A DNA stretch of 64,000 nt from Octopus vulgaris (taxonomy: Eukaryota), in contig OX597825.1 in assembly GCA_951406725.2 (NCBI GenBank), positions 45,508,001 to 45,572,000 of the forward strand, read 5' to 3'. The notes below the pieces were generated by a model. That model was not told where the DNA came from. It did not search any database and saw only the letters and a program-made list of their open reading frames with translations. A program made the position numbers and the translations under genes. Below, in pieces: positions 5,537 to 45,279 of this stretch (position 1 is the first letter of the stretch; each line of letters begins with the position of its first letter).

Positions 5537-9927
<4,391 letters not shown>

Positions 9928-10052
9928 GTTAGGAAGGGCATCCAGCTGTATGCATGCCAAATTTACTGGAGCTGGTGCAACTTCTGGCTTCCCAGAACCC
10001 CGGTCGGGCCGTCCAACCCCACATGCTAGCATGAAGTTAAACGACGATGATG

Positions 10053-10212
<160 letters not shown>

Positions 10213-10231
10213 TTATATATATATATATGTG

Positions 10232-10428
<197 letters not shown>

Positions 10429-10479
10429 CTCTTTCTGTCTTTTTACTTGTTTCAGCCATCAGCTGAGGGTATATATATA

Positions 10480-10534
<55 letters not shown>

Positions 10535-11061
10535 GCTATTTCTGAAAAGTTCAGTGTGTGTATATTCTTTTACCATATTTTTATAAATTAATACTTCAAA
10601 TGTAATTAATTAATTAATTCGATTTTCATAACAATATAATGCTCTCTCTCTCCGAAATTTAAACAGTTTTACCTCTGTAAATGGAATGCTCTATGAAAAG
10701 CTCACGTGGGATGACAGGAGATAATAGATCTCATTCATGTTTTGGATTAGCTAATATGAGTGTCTGGCATAGTTTGTCCGATGTTGCAATATCAGACGGG
10801 TATGTTTGATTCTTAGTATTTTCAAATCTAAATCAAATGTAACTAGTGAAGGAAAAAGTGGCATTTACCACAAATCCAAAAAGTAGACTGTCCCTCAGGT
10901 AGTATTATATATGTGTCTTTCATTGTTTTCCCTTCTGGTATTTTTCTACATATGTTAACTGGAGACTTTATTTGCAGTTGAAGAAATAGCCAAATTTTTA
11001 ATATGAAAAAGTTGAGTAATGTGTACAAAGTGAAATTCTTTACTTTACCATATAAATTAAT

Positions 11062-11292
<231 letters not shown>

Positions 11293-11302
11293 CATATATA
11301 TA

Positions 11303-11574
<272 letters not shown>

Positions 11575-11638
11575 ATATATATATTACATATATATATTAT
11601 ATATATATATATATATTATATGTATATATATATATATT

Positions 11639-11673
<35 letters not shown>

Positions 11674-11695
11674 ATATATATATTATATATATATA

Positions 11696-11834
<139 letters not shown>

Positions 11835-11844
11835 CATATATATA

Positions 11845-11975
<131 letters not shown>

Positions 11976-11978
11976 TGA

Positions 11979-12799
<821 letters not shown>

Positions 12800-12899
12800 N
12801 NNNNNNNNNNNNNNNNNNNNNNNNNNNNNNNNNNNNNNNNNNNNNNNNNNNNNNNNNNNNNNNNNNNNNNNNNNNNNNNNNNNNNNNNNNNNNNNNNNN
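12800..12899. other. Assembly gap (100 N)
   Basis: Run of N. Confidence 1.
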
Positions 12900-12989
12900 T
12901 AGCCTCTTCCACTATCAGACATTGTTTACTCATAAAAATAATGGTCCTTTACAACTGAATACTTGGTATGATTAATAACTAATTATTGT

Positions 12990-13064
12990 TGATATATGCA
13001 TGTGTGTGTATATATATGTGTGTATATGTGTATATGTACATGTGTGTATATGTATGTATGTATG

Positions 13065-13135
<71 letters not shown>

Positions 13136-13392
13136 GTATATATGTATATATATATATACATATATGTATGTGTGTGTATATGTGTATTATGTGTGTATAT
13201 GTTTATATATATGTATGTGTGTGTGTATATGTATATATGTGTATATATATGAGTGTACGCGAGTATGTCGATGTATATGTAGGTATGTAGAGTTATGTGT
13301 ATGTGCAGGTATGCGAGTGTGGATACAAATTGTAGATGTGTATATATATGTATGTGTATGTGTGAATGTATGTAGGTATATGTATGTGTGTG

Positions 13393-13431
<39 letters not shown>

Positions 13432-13507
13432 GTATAGTATGTAGAGATATAAGTATGTGCATGTGTATATATATATATATATATATATGGGTATGTGTAT
13501 ATGTATG

Positions 13508-13552
<45 letters not shown>

Positions 13553-13701
13553 TTGTGTATGTATGCATATACGTATGTAGGTATGTATGTGCATGTGTAT
13601 GTATATATGTGTGTAAGTGTGTGTATATATGTAAATGTAAGTGTGTGTGCTTGTATGAGAATGTATGTATGTTTGCACACATGTATATGTGTGTGTATGT
13701 G

Positions 13702-13752
<51 letters not shown>

Positions 13753-15075
13753 GTGTATATATATGTGTATGTATATATATGTGTATGTGTGTGTGTGTGT
13801 ATACATGTGTGTATGTGTATGTATGTATGTATATATATGCGTGTGCATGGGTATGTGTATATGTACATATACGCGTACGCTCGTGTGTTTATGTATATGT
13901 AGGTACGTAGAGTTATCTATGTGTGTATTTATATGTACATGTGTAAGTATGTATATATGTATATATATATGTGTATGTGTGTGTGTGTATATATGTATGT
14001 ATGTGTGTATGTGTATATATATGTGTATATTTGTATGTATATATATATATATATATATCTATGTGTGTAAGTTTATATGTATGTATCCGTCTATATAATA
14101 GGTAACTGCACGTACATATACTTAATATAAATTACTTAATATTTATTATTTATTTTTTGAGTATGCATGTATGAATAACTGCGCGTATATATATTTTACT
14201 ATTTACTTATTTTTTGAGTATGCATGTAAGTATGAATATATATATATGTATATATATATATACATGTATGTATTTGTATGTAGGTGTACGTGTATGTGTG
14301 TGTATTTATATTTATTGGTGTATATGTATAGACTAGCCTTCTAAGAGTGTAGACATGAATCTGTAGGTACGCGTACGTATGTGTATATACGTGAATGTAT
14401 GTAGATGTATGTATGTATGAATATAACACGTGCGTGCGTGTATGCGTATGAGTGTACGAATGAGTGAGTGTACGTGCTAAAGAGTGTGCGTGAGTGAATG
14501 AGTGCTTGTTTTCCAGTAGCCGGATAAATGGACTGGCTGTCATAGCCAAGATGTTTGTGACCAAGCGGCCAAAGATAACAAAAGTAATAAACGAAGATAA
14601 TAAAATTAAAATTAGGGAATGGGTCTGTATTTGTATGTGTATATATATATGTGTGTATGTGTAGGTATGCATAGGTACACATATGTATATATATATATAT
14701 ATATATGTATATGTATATATATATGTGTATGTATATGTATGTGTGTGTATATATGTGTGTATGTGTATATAGGGACTAGTGTGATGTGTGTGTATGGATT
14801 TGTGTGTGTATGCGTGTATGTGAGTATGTGTGTGTATGTGTATATATATTTTTCTGTGTGTATATGTATGTGTGGTCGTGTGTGTATATATACATGTGTG
14901 TATACGTGTATGCATGTGAGTGTGTGTATGTATACATATATGTGTATGTGTAGATATGTATATGTATGTGTAAGTGTATATATATGTATATATATATGTG
15001 TGTGTATGTATGTGTGTATGTATATGTATATATGTTTGTATGCGTGTGTATATATGTATACATATGTGCATAGGT
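12990..15075. repeat. Degenerate (TA/TG/TATG)n low-complexity tract
   Basis: Direct reading, with short non-repetitive islands near 14100-14220 and 14505-14625. Confidence 0.93.
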
Positions 15076-15627: not shown

Positions 15628-16302
15628 AGAAAATTTAAAAACATTTATATATATATCTATTATATATAGTTTACCATTAAACAATATATATCGTATAAGA
15701 AATTAGATATGTTTTTTTAATTTTCTCCTGGTTTATGGAATTAATGTTATTTTGCGGTTGAAGCTTTGGCTGTTATTTCTAGTGGGTGAATGGCCTATTA
15801 TGGCCATTCGTTGATTGTGATGTTGAACTTATAAATGGTTTATGACTATTTAATTTTTTCCCACTAGGCCGCTGGTGGCAAATAAATTCTACGAAATTTT
15901 TTGCCACCCTATATTGATTAATTATATATCATCATCATCATCATCGTTTAACGTCCGCTTTCCGCGCTAGCACGGGTTGGACGGTTTGACCGGGTCTGGG
16001 AAGCCAGGGGCCGCACCAGGCTCCAGTCTGAATCTGGCAGAGTTTCTACGGCTGGATGCCCTTCCTAACGCCAACCACTCCGTGAGTGGATTGGGTGCTT
16101 TTACGTGCCACCTGCACAGGGGCCGGAGGGTCCGGCATCGTCACGATCGGTTCGAGCATTTTAACGTGTCAGCGGCACGGGGGCAACGAGGTCCAGGGTA
16201 CTTTGGGGATCCGGGTACTTTGGGGATCCGGGGTACTTAGAATGGGTAGGTGGTATGTGGAATTGCTGCAGAAAGCAGCCCGGGTCTTTGTAGTCACAGC
16301 AT

Positions 16303-16660
16303 TTATCGTCACTGAGTAACGTAATTAGGTAGAGGAAAGAAATACAGATATTCTAGAGTTGAGTTGGGGTGGGGTCCAGTTGAGGCGGGTAATATAGGGG
16401 AGCAACCAGTGGGGAAGGTTGGGGTAAGGAGGAACGATGGCAGGAAGGGTTGGTGTAGGTTCCTAAGAAATAAAGACATTCGTTATCGTCACTGAGTAAC
16501 GTAATTAGGTAGAGGAAAGAAATACAGATATTCTAGAGTTGAGTTGGGGAGGGGGGTCCAGTTGAGGCGGGTAATATAGGGGAGCAACCAGTGGGGAAGG
16601 TTGGGGTAAGGGAGGAACGATGGCAGGAAGGGTTGGTGTAGGTTCCTAAGAAATAAAAAC
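16303..16660. repeat. ~180-bp direct duplication within the composite element
   Basis: ttatcgtcactgagtaacgtaattaggtagagg...aggttcctaagaaataaa occurs twice. Confidence 0.9.
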
Positions 16661-16863
16661 GTAGGATATTACGAGGCGGGAGGGTACTAAAGGGGATGGT
16701 CGGAATGAGGCAGTGTCAGGATGAAGCGTAAGATCGGTGGGCAGTTGATGAGCTATGGCGCTAGCAGCTTGTCTTTTCACAGTGAAAGCATATGAGGAGA
16801 AGGGGTAGTGGGAGGGAGTAGGGCGTACCCGGTGTAGATGAGTAAGGCGTATCCGGTGTAGAT

Positions 16864-17008
16864 GGTGAGAACAGGGTATACTGGTATTGGTGGTGGGGGG
16901 TGAGAACAGTGTTCACCGGTATTGGTGGTGGTGGCGGTGAGAACAGTGTTCACCGGTATTGGTGGTGGGGGTGAGAACAGTGTTCATCGGTATTGGTGGT
17001 GGGGGGGC
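16864..17008. repeat. ~33-37-bp VNTR, 4 copies
   Basis: Repeated ggtgagaacagtgttcaccggtattggtggtggg; single copy in the paralogue at ~34483-34525. Confidence 0.85.
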
Positions 17009-17014
17009 GGGCGC

Positions 17015-20000
17015 ACCGCCAATGGCGAAGAGATGGGATTACGGCTTGAGGTAGCCTAAGGTTAAATTTTGTAGAGAGAGAGATAGGAAAGATAAATCAA
17101 GTTATGGCGAAGGCTTGAAAGTAGCCTAAAAGGTTAAATTTTCGTAACAATGTATGAATAAACGTAGTAACAACGAATAAAAATAGTAAGATAAATTTTA
17201 AGAACTTGCTGCGGGCATCGATCGGGAGTTGAAATTGAAGAAGAAAGTAAGTTGAATTGGGAATTTAAATTGCAGAATCGTAATGGTAATGGCGATTTTC
17301 AAGTTTTAGCATAAGAAGAAGAAGAGGAGGAAAAAAGACCGCCAATGGCGGAAAGATGGGAAGAGATGGGATTACGGCTTGAGGTAGCCTAAGGTTAAAT
17401 TTTGTAGAGAGAGAGATAGGAAAGATAAATCAAGTTATGGCGAAGGCTTGAAAGTAGCCTAAAAGGTTAAATTTTCGTAACAATGTATGAATAAACGTAG
17501 TAACAACGAATAAAAATAGTAAGATAAATTTTTAAGAACTTGCTGCGGGCATCGATCGGGAGTTGAAATTGAAGAAGAAAGTAAGTTGAATTGGGAATTT
17601 AAATTGCAGAATCGTAATGGTAATGGCGATTTTCAAGTTTTAGCATAAGAAGAAGAAGAGGAGGAAAAGACCGCCAATGGCGGAAAGATGGGAAGAGATG
17701 GGATTACGGCTTGAGGTAGCCTAAGGTTAAATTTTGTAGAGAGAGAGATAGGAAAGATAAATCAAGTTATGGCGAAGGCTTGAAAGTAGCCTAAAAGGTT
17801 AAATTTTCGTAACAATGTATGAATAAACGTAGTAACAACGAATAAAAATAGTAAGATAAATTTTTAAGAACTTGCTGCGGGCATCGATCGGGAGTTGAAA
17901 TTGAAGAAGAAAGTAAGTTGAATTGGGAATTTAAATTGCAGAATCGTAATGGTAATGGCGATTTTCAAGTTTTAGCATAAGAAGAAGAAGAGGAGGAAAA
18001 AGACCGCCAATGGCGGAAAGATGGGAAGAGATGGGATTACGGCTTGAGGTAGCCTAAGGTTAAATTTTGTAGAGAGAGAGATAGGAAAGATAAATCAAGT
18101 TATGGCGAAGGCTTGAAAGTAGCCTAAAAGGTTAAATTTTCGTAACAATGTATGAATAAACGTAGTAACAACGAATAAAAATAGTAAGATAAATTTTTAA
18201 GAACTTGCTGCGGGCATCGATCGGGAGTTGAAATTGAAGAAGAAAGTAAGTTGAATTGGGAATTTAAATTGCAGAATCGTAATGGTAATGGCGATTTTCA
18301 AGTTTTAGCATAAGAAGAAGAAGAGGAGGAAAAGACCGCCAATGGCGGAAAGATGGGAAGAGATGGGATTACGGCTTGAGGTAGCCTAAGGTTAAATTTT
18401 GTAGAGAGAGAGATAGGAAAGATAAATCAAGTTATGGCGAAGGCTTGAAAGTAGCCTAAAAGGTTAAATTTTCGTAACAATGTATGAATAAACGTAGTAA
18501 CAACGAATAAAAATAGTAAGATAAATTTTTAAGAACTTGCTGCGGGCATCGATCGGGAGTTGAAATTGAAGAAGAAAGTAAGTTGAATTGGGAATTTAAA
18601 TTGCAGAATCGTAATGGTAATGGCGATTTTCAAGTTTTAGCATAAGAAGAAGAAGAGGAGGAAAAAGACCGCCAATGGCGGAAAGATGGGAAGAGATGGG
18701 ATTACGGCTTGAGGTAGCCTAAGGTTAAATTTTGTAGAGAGAGAGATAGGAAAGATAAATCAAGTTATGGCGAAGGCTTGAAAGTAGCCTAAAAGGTTAA
18801 ATTTTCGTAACAATGTATGAATAAACGTAGTAACAACGAATAAAAATAGTAAGATAAATTTTTAAGAACTTGCTGCGGGCATCGATCGGGAGTTGAAATT
18901 GAAGAAGAAAGTAAGTTGAATTGGGAATTTAAATTGCAGAATCGTAATGGTAATGGCGATTTTCAAGTTTTAGCATAAGAAGAAGAAGAGGAGGAAAAAG
19001 ACCGCCAATGGCGGAAAGATGGGAAGAGATGGGATTACGGCTTGAGGTAGCCTAAGGTTAAATTTTGTAGAGAGAGAGATAGGAAAGATAAATCAAGTTA
19101 TGGCGAAGGCTTGAAAGTAGCCTAAAAGGTTAAATTTTCGTAACAATGTATGAATAAACGTAGTAACAACGAATAAAAATAGTAAGATAAATTTTTAAGA
19201 ACTTGCTGCGGGCATCGATCGGGAGTTGAAATTGAAGAAGAAAGTAAGTTGAATTGGGAATTTAAATTGCAGAATCGTAATGGTAATGGCGATTTTCAAG
19301 TTTTAGCATAAGAAGAAGAAGAGGAGGAAAAAGACCGCCAATGGCGGAAAGATGGGAAGAGATGGGATTACGGCTTGAGGTAGCCTAAGGTTAAATTTTG
19401 TAGAGAGAGAGATAGGAAAGATAAATCAAGTTATGGCGAAGGCTTGAAAGTAGCCTAAAAGGTTAAATTTTCGTAACAATGTATGAATAAACGTAGTAAC
19501 AACGAATAAAAATAGTAAGATAAATTTTTAAGAACTTGCTGCGGGCATCGATCGGGAGTTGAAATTGAAGAAGAAAGTAAGTTGAATTGGGAATTTAAAT
19601 TGCAGAATCGTAATGGTAATGGCAATTTTCAAGTTTTAGCATAAGAAGAAGAAGAGGAGGAAAAAGACCGCCAATGGCGGAAAGATGGGAAGAGATGGGA
19701 TTACGGCTTGAGGTAGCCTAAGGTTAAATTTTGTAGAGAGAGAGATAGGAAAGATAAATCAAGTTATGGCGAAGGCTTGAAAGTAGCCTAAAAGGTTAAA
19801 TTTTCGTAACAATGTATGAATAAACGTAGTAACAACGAATAAAAATAGTAAGATAAATTTTTAAGAACTTGCTGCGGGCATCGATCGGGAGTTGAAATTG
19901 AAGAAGAAAGTAAGTTGAATTGGGAATTTAAATTGCAGAATCGTAATGGTAATGGCGATTTTCAAGTTTTAGCATAAGAAGAAGAAGAGGAGGAAAAAGA

Positions 20001-20406
20001 CCGCCAATGGCGGAAAGATGGGAAGAGATGGGATTACGGCTTGAGGTAGCCTAAGGTTAAATTTTGTAGAGAGAGAGATAGGAAAGATAAATCAAGTTAT
20101 GGCGAAGGCTTGAAAGTAGCCTAAAAGGTTAAATTTTCGTAACAATGTATGAATAAACGTAGTAACAACGAATAAAAATAGTAAGATAAATTTTTAAGAA
20201 CTTGCTGCGGGCATCGATCGGGAGTTGAAATTGAAGAAGAAAGTAAGTTGAATTGGGAATTTAAATTGCAGAATCGTAATGGTAATGGCGATTTTCAAGT
20301 TTTAGCATAAGAAGAAGAAGAGGAGGAAAAAGACCGCCAATGGCGGAAAGATGGGAAGAGATGGGATTACGGCTTGAGGTAGCCTAAGGTTAAATTCTGT
20401 AGAGAG

Positions 20407-20411
<5 letters not shown>
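17015..20411. repeat. Tandem array of 333-bp monomers (10 units plus a partial one)
   Basis: Unit starts (accgccaatggcg) at 17015, 17338, 17670, 18003, 18335, 18668, 19001, 19334, 19667, 20000 and 20333. Units are almost identical. Confidence 0.97.
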
Positions 20412-20454
<43 letters not shown>

Positions 20455-20514
20455 ATATATTTATATATATATATATATATTTTATATATTTATATATATA
20501 TTTATATATATATT

Positions 20515-20615
<101 letters not shown>

Positions 20616-20623
20616 GTATATAT

Positions 20624-20680
<57 letters not shown>

Positions 20681-20925
20681 TATATACATATCTACATATA
20701 TATATATATGTATATATGTATGTATATATGTATATATGTATGTATATGTGTATATATGTATGTATATATGTATGTATATATGTATGTATATATGTATATA
20801 TGTATGTGTATATGTATATATATATGTATTTATGTATGTATATATGTGTATATATATGTATATATATATGTATATATATATGTATATGTATATATATATG
20901 TATATATGTATATATATATGTATAT

Positions 20926-25007: not shown

Positions 25008-28000
25008 CTTGACCGACCAGTCTGTCAGGCGTCCATTTGACACTGCTGGTCACAGCACACTGTCCACTCCTCTCTGGATTGTGCCATTCTCATCCACGTG
25101 ATCCCAATCGTCCTCCTTAAATCGTAATGCCACCGTCGTGGAGGTCTTCCGGGTGGTCTTTTCCACTCGCGCGGGTACCACTCGACAACTGCGTGGGTCC
25201 ACCGATTATCGGTGAGCCGGGCAACGTGTCCAGCCCATCTATACTTGCTGCGTGTATACTCTGCGATGACATCTCACACGCCGGACTTCTTTCTAATGAT
25301 CTCGCTACTGATGTGCTCTCTCAATGAGATACCAAGCATTGACCTTTCCATGGCTCTTTGAGCCGTTACCAGTCTCTGCTCTTCTCTCTTTGTGATAGCC
25401 CATGTTTCACTACCATATAACATTGCAGGTAGAACTTCACTGTTAATGAGGTTGGCATGGGTGGTCCTGTCCAACCTTCCCTTGAGCACATCCCTTATGC
25501 CATTAAATGCCTTCCATCTGGCCCTTACTCTCTGTGAGATCTCTTTTTCGATATCTTGGCACATATTCACTTCCTGTCCCAGGTAGACATATTCTTTTAC
25601 CTCCTCTATTTCATCACTGCCGATCACCATTTGACCTGTTAATACGTTGTCTGACCGCATGAACTTTGTTTTTATGTGGTTCATCTTGTGACCTACTGCA
25701 GAGCTTATGATGTCGAGCTCCGTTAGCATGGTCTGAAGCTGATCCATGTTTTCAGCGATGAGTATGATGTCGTCAGCGAAACGGAGGTGAGTGAGGAGCT
25801 CGCCATTGATGTTGACACCACCTTGCCAGTCGATGCCTCTGATGATCTGTTCGAGACATGCGGTGAAAAGTTTTGGGGAGATTGTATCTCCTTGTTTCAC
25901 TCCCTTCTCAACCGGCACTCGTATGGGTGATGACAGTAGAGCTATGTTGGTGGTGCATCCGGAATTTGCCTCCCTGAGCAGCTGCACATATTGCACTTCG
26001 ACTCCTTGCCTCTGTAGCGAGTTCAGCACTGCATTGGTTTCGACGCTATCGCAAAGAGGCAGCTTGTACTCATTTGCTCGTTCAAGCAGTTGCGTTAGAG
26101 CAAATATATGGTCCATCGTGCTGTAGTTCTCCCAGAAGCCTGCTTGTTCCCTCGGTTGTTGTTCGTTGAGATGACGTGATAACCTGTTCAGAATTATCTT
26201 TGTGAACAGCTTGTACACGTGAGACAGCAGGCATATGGGTCGGTAGTTCTTTAGATCTTCTCTATCGCCCTTCTTATACAGCAGGATGGTATTTGACTCT
26301 TTCCACTGCGAGGGGATTCTTCCCTCGTCTAGATAGTGCGTAAATCGCTCAACGAGGATTTTCCAGAGCTGCTCTCTTGCCTGACTTTAGCACCTCCGAT
26401 GTTATACCATCTTTCCCTGGCGCCTTTCTGTTTTACATCGAGCCGATGGCTCTTTCAACCTCACTGACAAGGATAGTTGGCACGTTTTCTTCATGTTGGA
26501 GTGGTGGTAACGGCTGGACATTTCTGGTAGACTTAAAGAGCTTGGTGTAGAAGTCTTCGCAAACTTTTTCCATCTCGCTCTTCTCGTTGACCGGTATTCC
26601 ATCTGTATTCTCCAGGGCCGTCACCTCGGATCTATATAGTACCATGTCCCTCTTGCATTTCTTGAAGCTCTTCTTTTCCTCTGTGGCATTCAAGAGCTTC
26701 TCCATCCGGTATGGCTCAAAGTCTTTCTTTAGTTGCTGTTGAATCACTCTGCTGAAAATGGAATATTCAAGGTGATCTTCAATAGTCCATATTTTTCCTC
26801 TTCTCGAGTAACTTCGTAGTTCTTCCGAGATTCTTCCCTTCTTTTCTCTTAGGCATACTCCCTTTGCCTTCCTTAAACACTACTTCAGTTTCCCTATCGG
26901 TGAGTTGTAGTCATCGTCTATGTCGTCTCCTTGGCACCAGTCTTCCTGCGTGATGGCTTCCTGCAGTTTTGCCTCGTTGTAGACTCAGACACATTTTCCC
27001 CTCGACGCCAAATACAGCGCCATCTTCTCCCTCTTCCCGTCGATGATGACCCTCGCCCTCACCAGACGATGATTGCTGCCGGTGTTGAATGGCGTCACGA
27101 CGGAGGCGTCATGTAATATGCATCGCTTATCAACCAGGATGTAGTTGATCCCGCTTCAGTGCTTAGAGTTCGGCAATATCCAGGTCCATCTCTTCCTCTC
27201 CCTCTTCCTGAATAGGCTGTTTCCGTTGTAGAGCCGCCTCGCTTCTGCCATGGTAGCCAAACATTCTCCTCTCTCGTTTCTCTCTCCCATGCTGAATCTC
27301 CCGACATACTCCTCTCCTTGTCGTCCATGTCCAACCTTTGCGTTGAAGTCTCCCATCACGACAGTGTAAGTGAACTTCATAGCCAACCCTTTGTCTAGTT
27401 GTTGATAGAATTCTTCCACCTCGTCGTTGTTGCTGGCACTTGTGGGAGCATAGGTCTGGATAATCCGTGATGATATGAAGTGGCAAGAAGCGACCCTCGA
27501 AGTCCATTCCTTACTTATGATGAATCCGATACCTCTGACCGATCTAGCACCTTGTGCTCTCCCTAATCTCACAGTGCATCCATCTTGCCATCGTATACTC
27601 GCTTCCTTCTTCCAGCATGTCTCGCATAGCCCTAACACGTTGCACCTGATCTTCTTCCTCTCCTCCATTAGGTGGTTCAGATCTTACCACCCTGCCAAGG
27701 ACCTGCAGTTGTAGGTGCATGTGGCAAGGTTAGTCCTGTTCCATGACGGCCCTCGGGAACCTGTGATTCTTAGCAGCCTCTCGTCACTCGAGTTGCACTC
27801 CACTGTCATGGAGTGGCCCGATTGATGTGCAGGTTACTAAGGCCCTTTTCCTTTTCTCTTCGTTCTTCGTGCTATTTTAGCCACTGGCTGGGCGGGCAGG
27901 CCGGCATTTTGTTGGATGGCCGTTGACTATTCAGGAGTTCATCCGCCCTTTATTGGCTTTTATTTTTCCAACAGCACCCTCCTCAGCAAGCGAACCTGGT

Positions 28001-28089
28001 GGGGTTGTCAGTTTAGTCGCTGACATCCCAACCATGCAACGGGTTGTACTGGATTACATGTTACTAGTAGCACTCTAGAGCGACCTGAC
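25004..28089 (-). mobile_element. Near full-length, frameshifted RTE-clade LINE (APE + RT)
   Basis: APE motifs LGLCET, YAPT and MGDFNAKVG; RT motifs REQAGF, GVKQGDTISPKLF, LRFADD and YVYLG; bounded by TA runs. Confidence 0.92.
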
Positions 28090-28309
28090 ATATATAAATT
28101 TTTAATTTTCATTCCTTTCGTGAATTTATCCTTAATTGGTGGTTTGAGTTTTCTACTGCTCTTTCTAGCACAAGGCTTTTCTATTTGGAAGCCTCTTGTA
28201 TTTCTATGAGAATAATATATAGTCTAATGACTAATTCGTTTTTGTGCTAGGCCACTGGTAATAATAATTTCTTATTACCCTATTGTTATTTATTATATAT
28301 ATATATTTT

Positions 28310-28461
28310 TTTTTTTCTAGTTTCAGCTCAGAGCTGGAGCCTCGTGGAGCTTTTAGGTGTTTTCGCTCAATAAACACTCACAACGCCCGGTCTGGGAATC
28401 GAAACCGCGATCCTATGACCGTGAGTCCGCTGCCCTAACCACTGGGCCATTGCGCCTCCAC
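28310..28461 (-). mobile_element. Short tRNA-derived SINE with a CR1-type tail
   Basis: A box TGGCCCAGTGG, B box GGTTTCGATTCC, tail cagctctgagctgaaac plus an A-run. Confidence 0.8.
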
Positions 28462-28499
<38 letters not shown>

Positions 28500-28500
28500 T

Positions 28501-28613
28501 AGAAACACTGCCAGATCTGGCTGGGCCTGATGAAGCCTTCCGGCTTCACAGACCCCAGTTGAACCGTCCAACCCATGCTAGCATGGAAAACGGACGCTAA
28601 AAGATGATGATGA

Positions 28614-28616
<3 letters not shown>
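28501..28616 (+). mobile_element. RTE 3' tail fragment
   Basis: gaaccgtccaacccatgctagcatgg...gatgatgat. Confidence 0.8.
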
Positions 28617-28652
<36 letters not shown>

Positions 28653-28918
28653 ATACAAAATATGCATTAAATGAAAACTAAAATACTATAATTTAATCTA
28701 TATACACTAAATTAAATTATTTAAATGTAATACTACATAACAAATAAATCTCCTAACTATTAAATAATATATTGTTTTACAAAACTATTTCTCAAAGTAA
28801 ATTATATGTAATATGTTAAATCACATTATAAAAATAATAATAAATATAATAAATTAAATAGATATACGTATCTTAACTAATAATTATCAAGAAACTATAT
28901 ATAAATTAATATTTTAAC

Positions 28919-28950
<32 letters not shown>

Positions 28951-29015
28951 TAATAATAATCAAACATAATACAGTTCAAAAATTAAATAATTTTGTTAAA
29001 TAAAAACGTTGCTTC

Positions 29016-31930
29016 TTTTTTTTTTCTTGTTTCAGCTCAGAGCTGCGGCCATGCTGATGCACCGCCGTTTTGTGCTACACTGTTATTACGAAGAACCTCC
29101 TCTAATATGTGGCACTTGGTGAAGAATAGAGTTTGATATAGCTACTCTCATTTGCACCTCTTGCCGTGAGGTAGGTTCATCTGGGACTCTCGACAGGAAG
29201 ATGTCCAGCTTTGATTTAAAAGCCGCTACATCTACTTTGGGAGAATATTAAAAAGCTGTGGGCGCTTGAAACCCAGGCTGTTGCAGGAACTGGTCCTAAA
29301 GCGTGATGGCATTGCTGGGATCTTTGGCACTATGCAGTGTCGTCCTGTTCAAGCATTGGTGTAGCTTACAATGCCAAAATTTGGCACAATCCCTTCCAGG
29401 ATCTTCCAGACATATATTACTGCATGCCTCTCCCGTCTTCTCTCCAGGAAGTAGAGTCTTAGCTGTTTCAGCCTTTCCCAGTAGCTGAGCTGTTGCAAAG
29501 AGACGATCTTCTTTGTGAATCTTCTCTGGATTGCTTCAAGGTCCGCTTTTAATTTCACACTGGTGGGTGACCATAGCTGTGAGCAGTAATCCAGGCGGCT
29601 GAAGACGAATGTCCGCCAGAGGACCATCATGGTTTCCTTATCTCTGGTTCTGAATGTTCTTAGAATCCATCCAGCCAGTCGTCTGCACTTTGTCGCCATC
29701 CTGGTAATGTGCACTTGGAAAGAGGTATCCTCACTCATGTCGATACACAGGTCCCTCACAGACTTAGACTCTGGGATTGAAATTCCCTGTGGACCGGTGT
29801 ATCCTGTAAGTTTAATATTCAGTTTTGGATGCTGGTAACGCAGGGCCTGGAATTTTTCAGCATTAAACTGCATATTATTATCCTCAGCCCATCTGTAGAT
29901 TGAGTCCAACTCCTGCTGCAGGTGTGCAACATCGCTGGGGTTCTGTATTTTCTGCAAGACTTTCGTATCGTCTGCATAGCTTGCCAGAGTGGCTATCCGG
30001 GCATTTGAGGGCATATCTGAGAGGGCCACTATAAAAAGCAGTGGTCCCAAGACACTTCCCTGTGGAACACCACTCACTATTTGTGTGTTCATAGAGGTGG
30101 CTCCACTAACCACTACTGCCTGACTCCTATCTTTCAGCTAAGTTTTCCAGCTATGCCGAGGTCATGCAGTTTGTGGCATATCATACCATGATCCACCTTA
30201 TCAAAAGCTTTTGCAAAATCAAGGTAGATTACATCCACATTTGATTTGCTGAGTAACTGCCTCAACATCCAGTCATAATGTTGTAAGAGCTGGGTCAGGC
30301 AGCTCCTACCTGGTTGAAAACCATGCTGGGTATCACTCAGCAAGTTATTTTCCTCAAGGAATGCGATTAGTTTCTTTCTGACTATCCGTTCCATGACTTT
30401 GGTGATGTGTGAAGTCAGAGAGATAGGCCTATAATTTTTGGCATCTGCTCTACTTCCCCCTTTATGTATTGGGCATATTATTCCCTCCTTCAGCTTGCTT
30501 GGCAGTTTGCCATTTGTAAGAAAGCTCTGGAAAAGAATCTTGAGGGGTTTTGCCAGGGCATGCTTACACGCTTTGAGGAGGATTGCTGGGAAACCATCTG
30601 GACCAGCAGTTGAGTTTGTGTCCACTTCATTTATGGCTAGGACATCTTCTTCGCTAATGTCAATACATTCTATTGTAACCGCCTCGCTGGTTATAGGTGA
30701 GGCGGCAAAGAAGTCCACTGGTTTGTTCACTTGTCTGTGTTCCAACAGGATGGTAAAGACACTTTTGAACTGGTCATTCAGCATCTCACTGATCTTAGTT
30801 GGACTGTCTGTGAGGGAGCCATCCTTTTGGAGGAGGAGTCCTATCTTGTAGTGTACTGAGACTGTTTCTTTCGCATAATGAAAGAAGGCCTTTGGGTTTA
30901 ATTTAATGTTTTTTATAACCCAGGCTTCTTTGTCTGCTTTCTTTCTCACATAGAATTGTTGCAGCCTTTTTTCGATCACCATCTGTGTTGTTTTTAGGCG
31001 GGACGTTTCGCTACTTTTGGGATGTTGGTTGAGACGATTTGCAACCTTCGTCCATCGTCTCATGAGGATCTTCCTGTCTCTTGGAATCTTGCTCCTATTT
31101 GTTTTGGCCTTGTGCTCTGGGATATATTTCTGGCATACGGCTTGCACAGAAGACATGAAACATTCTAGTTTCATGTCAATGTCTGGTGTGGAGAGACATT
31201 CCGGCCAGTCCTCTCTGAGGATCTCTTTTTGGATCGATTTCCAATCTGCTTTGTGGAAGTTTAGATTGGAGAGATTTCGGGTGCTTCCTTTAGGCTGTAT
31301 CTCTCTTGTTACTTTTGGCCCAAACATAGACAGCTCTATTATGTTGTGATCCAAAACTAATGTCGGTGTCACTTTCACATCATGAATGATGTCCATATTG
31401 TTCGTGAAGCAGAGATCCAGAATGTTATTCGCCCTAGTTGGTTTGAGTACAACTTGCTCCATGAATAAGGCGTTGGTGAGGTTGAGCAGGGACTCCACCT
31501 GTACTTGCTTGCAATGATTCATTCCTGAGAGTATGAGACCTTCAGGCCATTTGACGTTGGGAAAGTTGAAATCACCCATAAGAAATATGGTCACGTTGTG
31601 TTCCAGATTCATGAAGATTTCTTTAATTCTTGTGAGGTAATCTTCAAACTTCCCTATGTGATTTGGAGCATCCGGTGTGCAATATGTATTGCATATGACT
31701 ATATTATGTTGTCTTATGTATACAATTAAAGTGTCACATACCGAATTTGAGTATGTCATTAAGACCTGAGGTGTGAGGTCATCTCGGATGTATACAGCAA
31801 CTCCACCATGGCTCCTTTCCCTTCTGTCTGTTCGCAGTATGGCATAGTTTGGTATGTGTACTTCTGCGTCGTCTATATCAGGGCTGAGGTGAGTTTCCAC
31901 GAGTGCTATGCATAGGGCTTGATTGCATCT
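29016..31930 (-). mobile_element. CR1/L2-group LINE, 5'-truncated within APE, with disrupted ORF2 (ORFs 30134-31900 and 29349-30113)
   Basis: [50 protein letters not shown] and YADD. Related to the element at 1-1393. Confidence 0.93.
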
Positions 31931-31994
31931 TATTGATGAGAATTTTATAACTGAATTTTAAATGTAATAATGTAGGTCTTAGCATTCATAATTA

Positions 31995-32320
31995 TATATT
32001 TGTTAAGATATTTCATATTTTACAAGATTATATACGTATATTTATTTATTTTATTGTTTTTATCTTTAACCTGAAGAGTGGCTATATTTAAATTGAATTG
32101 ATTTTGGTGTTATCAGTTCTTAAATATAGCCACAAAACACGTGTTGTCATTTTACCAATTATATATGTTTTATTTATTATTTTATACGTTACTTAATAAT
32201 TGGTATATGTTTATATCTTATATTTAATTTCTTTTCTATAGGATGTAATTTTTTTCTATATGGTATAATTTAGTTTTTTCATTGTTGAATTGATAAGAGG
32301 TGGTTTTCTTCTAATTTTCA
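31995..32320 (+). mobile_element. Second copy of the AT-rich hammerhead-like repeat
   Basis: Reverse complement of 24400-24835 without the RTE-tail insert. Confidence 0.7.
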
Positions 32321-32476
32321 CACTTATATATATATATATGTATGTATATATATGTATATATATATACATATATATATATGTATATATATGTATATATATA
32401 TACATATATATATATATGTATATATATGTATGTATATATACATATATGTATATATATATACATATATGTATATATA

Positions 32477-32510
<34 letters not shown>

Positions 32511-32536
32511 ATAAATAATATATAAGTATATGCATA

Positions 32537-33918
32537 TGATGGCCGTCCACTCGTGACCGAGGAAGACCATTGCCGACCTTCAGGAACATTGTGCACTCTA
32601 GGACTAACTTATATTTTGCATTTGCGGCTCCGTTGGTGGCTAATGAGCCCTGCTCTTGACAAGCATACACGACTGCAAACATTGCAGACCAAGCTTTCCC
32701 CATTCACTATACAAGCCATGCGCTTTCGCGCAGCTCGCTTAAGTTCTTCATGCTGGATACGTGCTCTCTCAAAAGTGTCGATCCCCTCCTTAACCTGCTT
32801 CCTCCATCTGTGGCGATGACAGGCATTGTTCTCCCAGTCAGTGTCCTGTATATCAAAAGCCTTTAATGAGGACTTGACACAGTCCTTAAATCGTAGCCTT
32901 GGTTTCTGCCGGAGTCTCCTTCCATTCACAAGTTCTCCATAGAGCATCTGCTTAGGAATCCTTCTATCCTCCATTCTAATAAGGTGTCCAGTCCAACGCA
33001 ACCGGTGCTTGTGTACCATTGCTTCAATACTCAAGATATCAGCTGTCCTCAGGATCTGTGTGTCTGGAATTTTTGAGGTCCAGCCAGCATTGAGAATGTG
33101 TCTGAGACATCTCTGATGAAAACGTTCAAGGACCCTTACCTGACGTTTGTACAGAGTCCATGTCTCACATGAGTAGAGAAGCGATGTCAGTACACAAGCA
33201 CGGTACACAGCAACTTTTGTTCTCCTTGTGATGCCATGTTGGGACCAGACACGAGACTGAAGAGACCGGAAGGAATTAGTTGCTCTCTGTAACCTGAAAG
33301 ATATTTTCTCATCCAGGGAGCAAGAACGGCTGAGTGTGCTGCCCAGGTAGACAAACTTGTCTTCTACCTTCAGAATTGTTCCTTCAACCAAGATAGCTGG
33401 TTCTATATATGGATTTCCTGGTGCAGGCTGGAACATTACAACAGTCTTGTCCAGGCTAATGCTGAGTCCAAATGCCCTGCAAGAAGCAGAAATGCAATTC
33501 ATGAGTATTTGCATGTCATCCACTGTATGAGTGACTAAGTCACAGTCATCTGCATAAAGGAGGTCACGAATAATAGACTGGGAAACCTTTGAATTGGCAG
33601 CAAATCGGCGAAGATTAAAGAGGCGGCCAGAAGATCGATATCTGACATATATTCCCAGAGAGCTAACCTTAGCAAAAGCATGAGTAAAAGCAGCAGCAAA
33701 GTACAAAGAAAAGAGAGTTGGGGCAAGGATGTCACCCTGCTTGACACCATTCTCTACAGGAATGGGTCCCGCCATGGCACCCCCAACATTGACCCAAGCC
33801 TCGATCCCATCATGAAATGATTTAATTATAGATACAAAATGATCCGGACATCCGAGTTTACCAAGTATTTTCCATAGAAAGGCCCTATTTACAGTATCAA
33901 AGGCCTTAGTTAAATCAG
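32537..33918 (-). mobile_element. 5'-truncated RTE (BovB-like) LINE; ORF 32609-33775 uninterrupted
   Basis: DLTKAFDTV, GVKQGDILAPTLF, LLYADD, FVYLGS, LLYSCETW, RLRWTGH and a terminal CxxC..H zinc finger. Confidence 0.92.
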
Positions 33919-33927
33919 TATATATAT

Positions 33928-34745
33928 CATCATCATCATCATCATCATCGTTTAACGTCCGTTTTCCGCGCTAGCACGGGTTGGACGGTTCGACCGGGGT
34001 CTGGGAAGCCAGGGGCCGCTCCAGTTTGATCTGGCAGAGTTTCTACGGCTGGATGCCCTTCCTAACGCCAACCACTCCGTGAGTGGAGTGGGTGCTTTTT
34101 ACGTGCCACCTGCACAGGGGCCGGGGGGTCCGGCATCGGTCGCGATCGGTTCGAGCTTTTAACGTGCCAGCGGCATGGGGGGCAACGGGATCCGGGGTAC
34201 TTTGGGGGGGTGGGGAAGGTTGGGGGGTAAGGAGGAACGATGGCAGGAAGGGTTGGTGCAGGTTCATAAGAAATAAAAACGTAGGATATTACGAGGCGTG
34301 GAGGGGACTGGAAGGAGATAGTAGGATTGAGGCAGTGTCAGATTCAAAACAGGAGGAAGCGTAAGATCAGTGGGCGGTTGATGAGCTGTGATGCTAGCAG
34401 CTTGACTTTTCACAGTGAAAGCATATGAGGAGAAGGGGTAGGAAGGGGTGGTGGGGGAGGAGGAGGGAGTATCCGGTGTAGATGGTGAGAACAGTGTTCA
34501 CCGGTATTGGTATTGGTGGTGGGGGTGGGAGGGCGGGCGCACGGCGCACTGGGAGAAGATGAGATTTTGGCGGCAGAAAGAAAGACAGGATTTGAGATGG
34601 AATGCTTTGCGATCGTGTGCATAAGTTTCTATGAGTGGAAGTTGGGAAAAGATGGGTTAGAGAATTAAGCGACAGAAAGAAAGACCAGATTTGAGACGAG
34701 ATGTTTTTGCGGCCGTGTGAGTTTTTGTGAGTGAAAGTTTATATG
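33928..34745 (-). mobile_element. Second copy of the composite RTE-tailed element, with a different 5' repeat
   Basis: Collinear with 15928-17014 up to gggcgggcgcac (~34542), then two ~100-bp repeats (cagaaagaaagac..gatttgaga) at ~34573 and ~34673. Confidence 0.78.
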
Positions 34746-34906
34746 CTTCAGCTAGCATTTGAGACGAAAGACAACGATAACGCTAATATATGGGGAAACA
34801 ATAATAATAAGAAGGCTTGATGGTGATGATGATACTTGCAAAAACAATGAAAAGAGGAACAGGACTTAGCTGATATTTTTCATCCTGCGTATTGGCTAAG
34901 CCTGTG

Positions 34907-34960
<54 letters not shown>

Positions 34961-43391: not shown

Positions 43392-43574
43392 GATATATAC
43401 ACACTCACTCACACATGTGAAATTTGATTTGGATTGTTGGTACTGCTTTCAGAGAAAGAGAGTTTGCTAAGAAAAAGAAGGGAGGGAGAAATTTCCCTTT
43501 AGGAGAGAGAACTGCTCAGGGCTTTTTTTTTTTGTCTTATTATTATGGGATGTCTTTTTCTTATGAAGGTATGA

Positions 43575-44578
43575 AAGAAGGGTGTGCTGAAAGTGTAACT
43601 GCTAGAGTAAGAATAGCTTGGGCAAAGTTCAGAGAGCTCTTACCTCTGCTGGTGACAAAAGGCCTCTCGCTCAGAGTAAAAAGCAGACTGTATGACGCAT
43701 GTGTATGAACAGCCATGCTACATGGCAGTGAAACATGGGCCGTGACCGCTTAGGATATGCGTAAGCTCGCAAGAAATGAAGCCAGTATGCTCCGATAGAT
43801 GTGTAATGTCAGTGTTCATACTCGACAGAGTGTAAGTACCTTGAGAGAAAAGTTGCACCTAAGAAGCATCAGTTGTGGTGTGCAAGAGAGACGTTTGCAC
43901 CGGTATGGTCATGTGGCGAGAATGGATGAAGATAGTTGTGTGAAAAAGTGCCACACCCTAGCAGTTAAGGGAACCTGTGGAAGAGGCAGACCCAGGAAAA
44001 CCTGGGACAAGGTGGTGAAGCACGACCTTCGAACTTTAGGTCTCACCGAGGAAATGACTAGAGACCAAGACCTTTGGAAGTATGATGTGCGTGAGAAGAC
44101 CCGGCAGGACAAGTGAGACCATAACCCGTGGCCTTTTACATGGGATGTAGCCATTCCACATATGCATACCTTTCCTTCTTGGGACACAAAACTCTACTTG
44201 TGAAGACCTGTTGAGGCAAGTGAAAATCCAAAATCAAAATCAAAATCGATCAACATCAATGGAAATTGCAACTGTGATACCAGTGCCCGTGGTATGTAAG
44301 AGAACCATCCGAACGTGGCCGTTGCCAGCACCGCCCTGACTGGCCTCGTGCCGGTGGCACATAAAAAGCACCATCCAATCGTGGCCATTTGCCAGCCTCG
44401 TCTGGCACGTAAAAAGCACCCACTACACTCACGGAGTGGTTGGCGTTAGGAAGGGCATCCAGCCATAGAAACATTGCCAGATCAGACTGGGCCTGGTGCA
44501 GCCTTCTAGCTTCCCAGACCCCAGTTGAACCGTCCAACCCATGCTAGCATGGAAAGCGGACGCTAAACAATGATGATG
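43575..44578 (+). mobile_element. 5'-truncated RTE LINE: ORF end plus 3' UTR ending (GAT)n
   Basis: AWAKFRELLPLL, YGHVARM and GRGRPRKTW; stop at 44116; UTR continues into the tail shared with many fragments in the window. Confidence 0.9.
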
Positions 44579-45279
44579 AAGAAGTGAAGAGATAGAGGAA
44601 GGGTAATGAAAGCCTCAGAGTCATTTAAAATCAAAATTAACACTATACACAATATTATAGATATTTTCTATTTTCTTTAATTCTAACAGTAGGGGAAAGA
44701 CAAAGAAGGAAAGAGATTGAGTGATAAAAAGAGGGAAAGTCTCTTATTTTATTTCTCCCATTTTTTTTTTCCTCTAGTACCTATTCACCTTGTTTGATAG
44801 TTCTTCATGTAGACTTGATTACCATTTTCTCTACAAACTATATGCACATCCCTCTGTGAATATCATATTTCCATGCTGCTTATCATGTGTGAAATTTGAC
44901 TGGCAGCTGTTGGTGCTGCCACCTATGTTTGCTTTCATAGAGGTAGAGAGAAAGAGAGTTTGCTAAGAAATAGAGGGGTGGGAGAAATTTCCTTTAAGGG
45001 GAGAGAACTGCCCAGAGTTTTTTTTTCTTTTCCAATGTTTTTGACAATCTTTTCAAACTTATAATTTAGAAACTCTTATCATTATGAATTTTTAAAAAAG
45101 ATGGCATATAATTTTACAATTGTTGGATTTTTATTTTAGCTCTTTACATAAATCAGAATTTCTTGGTTTTTACGGCATTTTCCCACATTTCAAATTATTC
45201 ACGAGCAGAGCTTCTTTAAAATAAAACTTTTTAATCTATATTTTTTTCAAATGTCTACCCACAATCTCATCGTCACCAC

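Follow-up and report, generated by a model that had tools for sequence, protein, structure and literature searches.

An internal-deletion derivative of an RTE-like LINE with a tandem 5′ monomer array in the Octopus vulgaris genome

Introduction

Retrotransposons of the RTE clade possess a single open reading frame (ORF) with an AP endonuclease and a reverse transcriptase (RT), without an ORF1. They have been described as carrying a microsatellite-like 3′ tail (PMC6007223, Table 2) and as producing target-site duplications of 7–15 bp (PMC6007223). Bipartite non-autonomous RTE LINEs, such as Bov-A, RTESINE1/2, MAR4_MD and WALLSI3, retain only the two ends, 5′ and 3′, of a coding LINE, were amplified after an internal deletion and have no small-RNA head (PMC5786205). 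The mouse L1Md subfamilies A, F, Tf and Gf carry tandem monomers in variable number at the extreme 5′ end, followed by a tether before the ORF; truncation within a monomer, rare very long arrays and unrelated monomer types on related bodies have been reported (PMC6454616, PMC5381506), and the way in which the arrays regenerate is stated to be unresolved (PMC6454616). RTE bodies of the SolRTE group in Nicotiana swap non-homologous 5′ ends (bioRxiv 10.1101/2022.11.04.512097), and RTE-2_OV of Octopus vulgaris has a single ORF of ~1100 aa, a 5′UTR of ~600 nt and a repeat-rich 3′ end (PMC9115989). In Lathyrus, short arrays within dispersed LTR retrotransposons occasionally expand into satellites (PMC7004042).

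We analyzed a stretch of 64,000 nucleotides of Octopus vulgaris DNA (hereafter the window) that contains an element resembling each of these systems in part. As in the bipartite RTE LINEs, coding-LINE 5′ and 3′ parts were amplified after an internal deletion and a small-RNA head is lacking; however, the octopus family has a multi-kb tandem 5′ array, and the word "tandem" is absent from PMC5786205. The mouse L1 comparison, which had already been drawn in a reading of the sequence alone, fits with regard to the tandem 5′ monomers, their variable number, the tether, truncation inside a monomer, rare very long arrays and unrelated monomer types on related bodies. The octopus parent, in contrast, is a single-ORF non-L1 LINE of an invertebrate, its monomers are AT-rich and measure 333 or ~510–640 bp, its ORF-less derivatives retain the array, and the promoter role of the monomers is putative. 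Non-homologous 5′ ends on related bodies recall SolRTE, although that source uses neither the word "tandem" nor the word "monomer". The single ORF, 5′UTR and repeat-rich 3′ end are also reminiscent of RTE-2_OV, but none of five published primers and probes matched long copy L052 with up to three mismatches, which distinguishes the two by primer and probe sequence (PMC9115989); the passages of that source mention neither tandem repeats nor monomers for RTE-2_OV, and one of its supplements does not hold the full sequence. Finally, whereas the Lathyrus case involves LTR elements and pericentromeric expansion (PMC7004042), the octopus arrays arise at a LINE 5′ end and reach only ~14–18 kb.

Results and Discussion

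Structure of the window element

The components named in the sequence-only reading were all recovered on the minus strand between positions 15928 and 20413 (Table 1): a partial monomer followed by ten near-identical monomers, which differ from the first unit by zero to two events each; a four-copy VNTR; a 180-bp duplication; and a 3′UTR matching several RTE-type tails within the window, with a terminal (GAT)n. As had been noted, no ORF of at least 100 aa was present within 15928–20377. The 180-bp duplication is not a hallmark of the family. Of the 60 short copies scored, 13 had it in full, 24 in part and 23 not at all; it marks one short subfamily.

Table 1. Positions of the features described in the text (window coordinates)
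Feature	Position	Strand	Basis and remarks
5′ array of type-A monomers	17014..20413	-	10.2 units of 333 bp (TRF, 17022–20413, 99% matches); 5′-truncated; stops at tether boundary motif; contig C12:45525014-45528413
Start of unique 5′UTR (tether) and C-rich VNTR of ~35 bp	16864..17013	-	TRF, 4.1 copies of 35 bp at 16864–17006; VNTR also in long copies
Remainder of tether	16303..16863	-	24-bp and 180-bp tandem duplications (180 bp: TRF, 16304–16669); 96.7% to L041 over first copy
Deletion junction	16302..16303	-	~3.15 kb of parent ORF gone; long and short junctions compared; 172 exact copies
Remnant of parent ORF end, ~44 last codons, stop codon, 17-bp minisatellite	16169..16302	-	tblastn with parent residues 1069–1130
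3′UTR	15946..16168	-	common to parent and, less closely, many RTE-type tails
(GAT)6 tail	15928..15945	-	read from sequence
(TA)n tract at 5′ junction	20411..20925		TRF; usual insertion context of family
Sister ORF-less element	33932..34910	-	partial type-B monomer (34540–34910), related tether, different deletion, same kind of tail
3′ fragment of B-lineage coding LINE	43541..44582	+	72% aa and 78.7% nt to A parent; 87–89% nt to B long copies L216 and L234

The coding parent

We searched the 2.8-Gb assembly with one monomer, scored the best 37 of 253 candidate places and fetched the 36 lying outside the window. The same tether adjoined the array at all 36 loci, which bears out the attachment of monomers to the body that had been predicted. 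Of these loci, 16 were of a short form with the deletion junction of the window element, and 20 (one of which ends at a contig end) were of a long form with 3.15 kb of extra DNA between tether and tail. The extra DNA is one ORF, of at least 1000 aa in 16 of the 19 complete long copies, with Pfam matches to RVT_1 (E 1.5e-29) and Exo_endo_phos (E 5.8e-8) and a weak PHD match under its cut-off (E 6.5e-4). Because 20 monomer loci carry this single ORF, the array, the VNTR and the body are the 5′UTR of a young coding LINE.

Genome-wide, the exact pattern of the deletion junction occurred 172 times and that of the long form 112 times, compared with 0 for reversed control patterns. The junction is hence not unique to this locus, and the proposed family of non-autonomous retroelements exists. 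With 112 long junctions and intact ORFs, it is unlikely that the long copies are late recombinants of the short form. To obtain a sample chosen irrespective of monomer content, we used every junction place on contigs C1–C6 (66 short, 48 long). The ORF was uninterrupted in 29 of 57 long ORF spans, with a median pairwise divergence of 0.86%. The last ~248 bp were identical to those of the window element in 47 of 75 short copies and differed by one to three substitutions in 44 of 53 long copies, and (GAT)n formed the 3′ end of all complete copies displayed.

The window tether is 96.7% identical to that of long copy L041, and the window monomer is 97.6–98.5% identical to the monomers of L041 and L043 (98.5% for L041); therefore, the window copy is an internal-deletion derivative of this coding LINE, of the bipartite non-autonomous type. 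Its 5′ and 3′ parts are colinear with the coding LINE, the ORF is deleted, and amplification followed the deletion, as one junction is found at 172 loci. We are highly confident of this structure and parentage. Three more junction types, all with the array kept, represent further deletions of the same A parent, and the family includes at least six separate deletion junctions, a point of difference from the bipartite RTE LINEs described in PMC5786205. The parent protein has 94 homologues, with up to 53% full-length identity. Its architecture and motifs (one ORF that encodes both an AP endonuclease and an RT, the lack of an ORF1, and a microsatellite-like 3′ tail) indicate that the parent likely belongs to the RTE clade. 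Apart from these copies, locus L210 (reverse strand, near 1989) holds a short element with the same boundary motif and a third kind of tether, possibly from another lineage.

Monomer arrays across the genome

The assembly contains 1474 exact type-A monomer anchors (reversed control, 0). The first 100 listed anchors, covering the first 134.5 Mb of C1, form 15 arrays, all of which join a tether, and no free satellite was found among them. In the C1–C6 sample, the anchor was reached by 45 of the 66 short and 29 of the 48 long copies, the rest starting further 3′. Two long copies (L127:3131-4504 and L154:3261-4548) have an array of 86-bp mini-monomers instead of the anchor type, and this mini-monomer may mark the essential core of the monomer. 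Arrays ranged from <1 to 45 units, the longest having at least 45 units (14 kb), although some long arrays are cut by the limit of the retrieved sequence, or run into or include 100-N assembly gaps. More than 10 units were present in 11 of 74 arrays; in mouse, according to PMC6454616, 99% of promoters carry 10 monomers or fewer, and the maximum is 50.

The type-A unit length varied from 86 to 392 bp by subfamily, and units were closer within a locus than between loci in all six subtype groups. Some arrays showed dimer, trimer or five-unit periods, those of L031 and L146 were mosaics of two subtypes, and subfamily variants were common to whole arrays at different loci. Beyond the junction-proximal unit, we observed no index-by-index inheritance of array variants from one locus to another. 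These patterns show block duplication and exchange, in DNA or during reverse transcription, and growth in place is likely because 14-kb arrays sit on a 4-kb parent.

Contigs from sequencing runs of organisms A, B and C contained both monomer and tether, and a contig of run X16 (organism B) spans the joint of the 180-bp duplication. In run X15 (organism A; probably DNA), the summed contig depth was ~143,000–269,000 in monomer bins, 9,000–15,000 in the tether and 50–89 in unique flank, a rough ratio of at least 10 monomers per tether that is to be taken as a hint and not as a copy number. The contigs of three presumed-RNA runs also cover monomer and tether, and such contigs give neither strand nor start. 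For L060:1005-2219, the monomer/tether depth ratio in X16 was roughly 30–70, apparently above that in X15, and may reflect longer or free arrays in organism B.

A second monomer type in a sister lineage

The 5′ sequence of the ORF-less element at 33932–34910 also proved to be a tandem monomer, of ~510 bp (503 candidates, 40 scored), and 62 exact junctions between this type-B monomer and a tether were found. Among 20 sampled B copies, 18 were short and two were long; the latter have ORF DNA 70–79% identical to A, a different tether and monomers of ~620–640 bp. The best match between A and B monomers was 18 bp (E 0.024), plus a CT microsatellite, and we treat the two as unrelated sequences with only the short boundary motif in common. 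In the short B copies, B monomers stand together with a tether and a 3′ end that are both A-like, an arrangement suggestive of a 5′ switch similar to those reported for L1 and for tobacco RTE (PMC5381506; bioRxiv 10.1101/2022.11.04.512097). At one locus (G000:C6:89680334-89698138), B monomers apparently extend over 17.8 kb or more ahead of the tether junction. The window contains three other pieces of LINE ORFs at 25274–33970, which match RT but are only 24–33% identical to the parent protein, and the B-type element adjoins one of them.

Putative promoter role, probable mobilization in trans and alternative readings

In our judgement, the best explanation of the window element, and one that we regard as probable, is an internal-deletion copy of a young RTE-like LINE that kept the 5′ array, the tether and the tail, is copied in trans and uses its monomers as internal promoters. 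RNA polymerase II would start inside a monomer, such that a truncated copy with one or two monomers would remain transcribable; the endonuclease/RT of the parent would bind the shared 3′ end and prime reverse transcription at AT-rich targets or AT microsatellites; and arrays would regrow via unequal exchange or template switching, sometimes to >14 kb. ORF-less derivatives would in this manner exploit both ends of the parent. Across the family, we observed staggered 5′ truncation, a fixed 3′ (GAT)n end and a bias to (TA)n sites. Mobilization in trans by the parent protein is likely in view of the shared 3′ end and the intact parents.

That the monomers are repeated internal promoters we hold with moderate confidence, and we infer this role from 5′ ends that avoid one third of the monomer. 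Of the 74 arrays, 61 were usable in this analysis (10 were dropped as cut by the fetch edge and three as unreliable), and only eight of the 61 5′ ends fell in monomer positions 1–113, compared with 31.5% expected (binomial P = 0.0013; six-bin chi-square P = 0.012), although the bias is broad (positions ~110–325), the bins were set post hoc and related copies do not count as independent. The most GC-rich part of the monomer lies within the avoided stretch, and joining to (TA)n targets could therefore explain the bias. The mouse YY1 motif GCCATCTT, given for L1Md Tf and Gf in PMC6454616, is absent from the octopus monomer, which contains only the GCCAT core, three times.

Other kinds of 5′ head were considered separately. 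An Rfam search of 15900–18100 for a ribozyme or other structured RNA gave two chance-level matches, none near the gathering score; divergent RTE ribozymes could escape such a search, and a single fixed ribozyme cut is disfavoured because the 5′ ends are scattered. ARAGORN predicted 0 tRNA genes.

Alternatively, the promoter could lie in the tether or flanks, and the monomers would be passengers that ride along and expand in place as a young dispersed satellite. Arrays of 21–45 units with block duplications and higher-order periods do exceed what a promoter needs, the monomer length drifts as described above, and the 5′ ends are not focused on a single site. However, the same position is taken by two monomers that are unrelated yet terminate at similar boundary motifs, every deletion derivative seen retains the array, and CpG is not depleted in the monomer (observed/expected 1.48, compared with 0.58 in the window). 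We regard passenger monomers as unlikely and internal promoters as the preferred reading.

The element had also been described as an SVA-like composite. SVA elements are non-coding, contain a VNTR, are moved in trans and join parts of unrelated origin. The octopus element resembles them in its lack of coding capacity, its VNTR and its probable mobilization in trans, and a free satellite and VNTR that had become joined to an RTE tail, with the RTE at 43575–44578 as the driver, would account for its modular appearance in the window alone and for the shared 3′ tail (88%). The array, VNTR, body and tail are, however, all colinear with one coding LINE, which bears the same array, VNTR and tether; no free array occurred among the 36 and 15 examined; and the RTE named as the driver is a fragment of the sister lineage (Table 1). 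A composite origin is thus very improbable, and the driver of the window family is likely the long A form. Least probable of all is that assembly error created the array length from an element with one or two monomers, since the near-identity of the units and the 100-N gaps at or within some long arrays are set against locus-specific variant patterns in arrays of <1 to 45 units and the X15 depths, which, though not a copy number, roughly indicate at least 10 monomers per tether.

Relation to known mechanisms

Three phenomena are already known separately: bipartite derivatives of RTE elements, monomer promoters in L1 and 5′ switching in RTE. In the literature searched, we found no description of the window family or of 5′ monomer arrays on an RTE element (Repbase, Dfam, subscription papers and the PMC13282606 library lay outside its scope and may hold one), nor any precedent for the combination of the three or for such arrays on an RTE-type LINE with a single ORF. 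We slightly favor the view that an invertebrate RTE-type LINE independently evolved the mouse-L1 answer to 5′ erosion, namely renewable and exchangeable promoter monomers, in two unrelated versions, parasitized by ORF-less derivatives and with arrays growing in place to dispersed satellites of 10–18 kb. The family is very young (~1% divergence, ~300 loci, marked subtypes and mosaic arrays) and offers an independent case in another LINE clade, by which two proposed models of array regeneration may be told apart. It also illustrates dispersed satellite-like arrays that originate at the 5′ end of a LINE. In repeat libraries, elements of this kind may be broken up into three entries: a satellite, an unknown and a SINE-like tail.

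Insertion sites and flanks

The motif (AT)3 followed the tail in 59 of 114 copies and preceded the 5′ end in 40 of 61, compared with 930 of 17,600 background positions. No target-site duplication of at least 6 bp was found in the ~8 copies bordered by unique sequence at either end, and in most copies a duplication is unreadable because most flanks are (TA)n. A search for the empty site of L060 in four runs gave no joint that skips the element among the best 15 of 24 matches. L036 (890–970, 2557–2650) and L039 are inserted in palindromic repeats, at the central (TA)n, so that their 5′ and 3′ flanks are reverse complements of each other, and the 5′ flank at L201:1140-1208 is of the same kind as that of L036. 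Within the window, two AT-rich tandem arrays at 6686–7830 and 8122–9334, with consensus units that are mutual reverse complements, are placed in a mirror arrangement and appear foldback-like.
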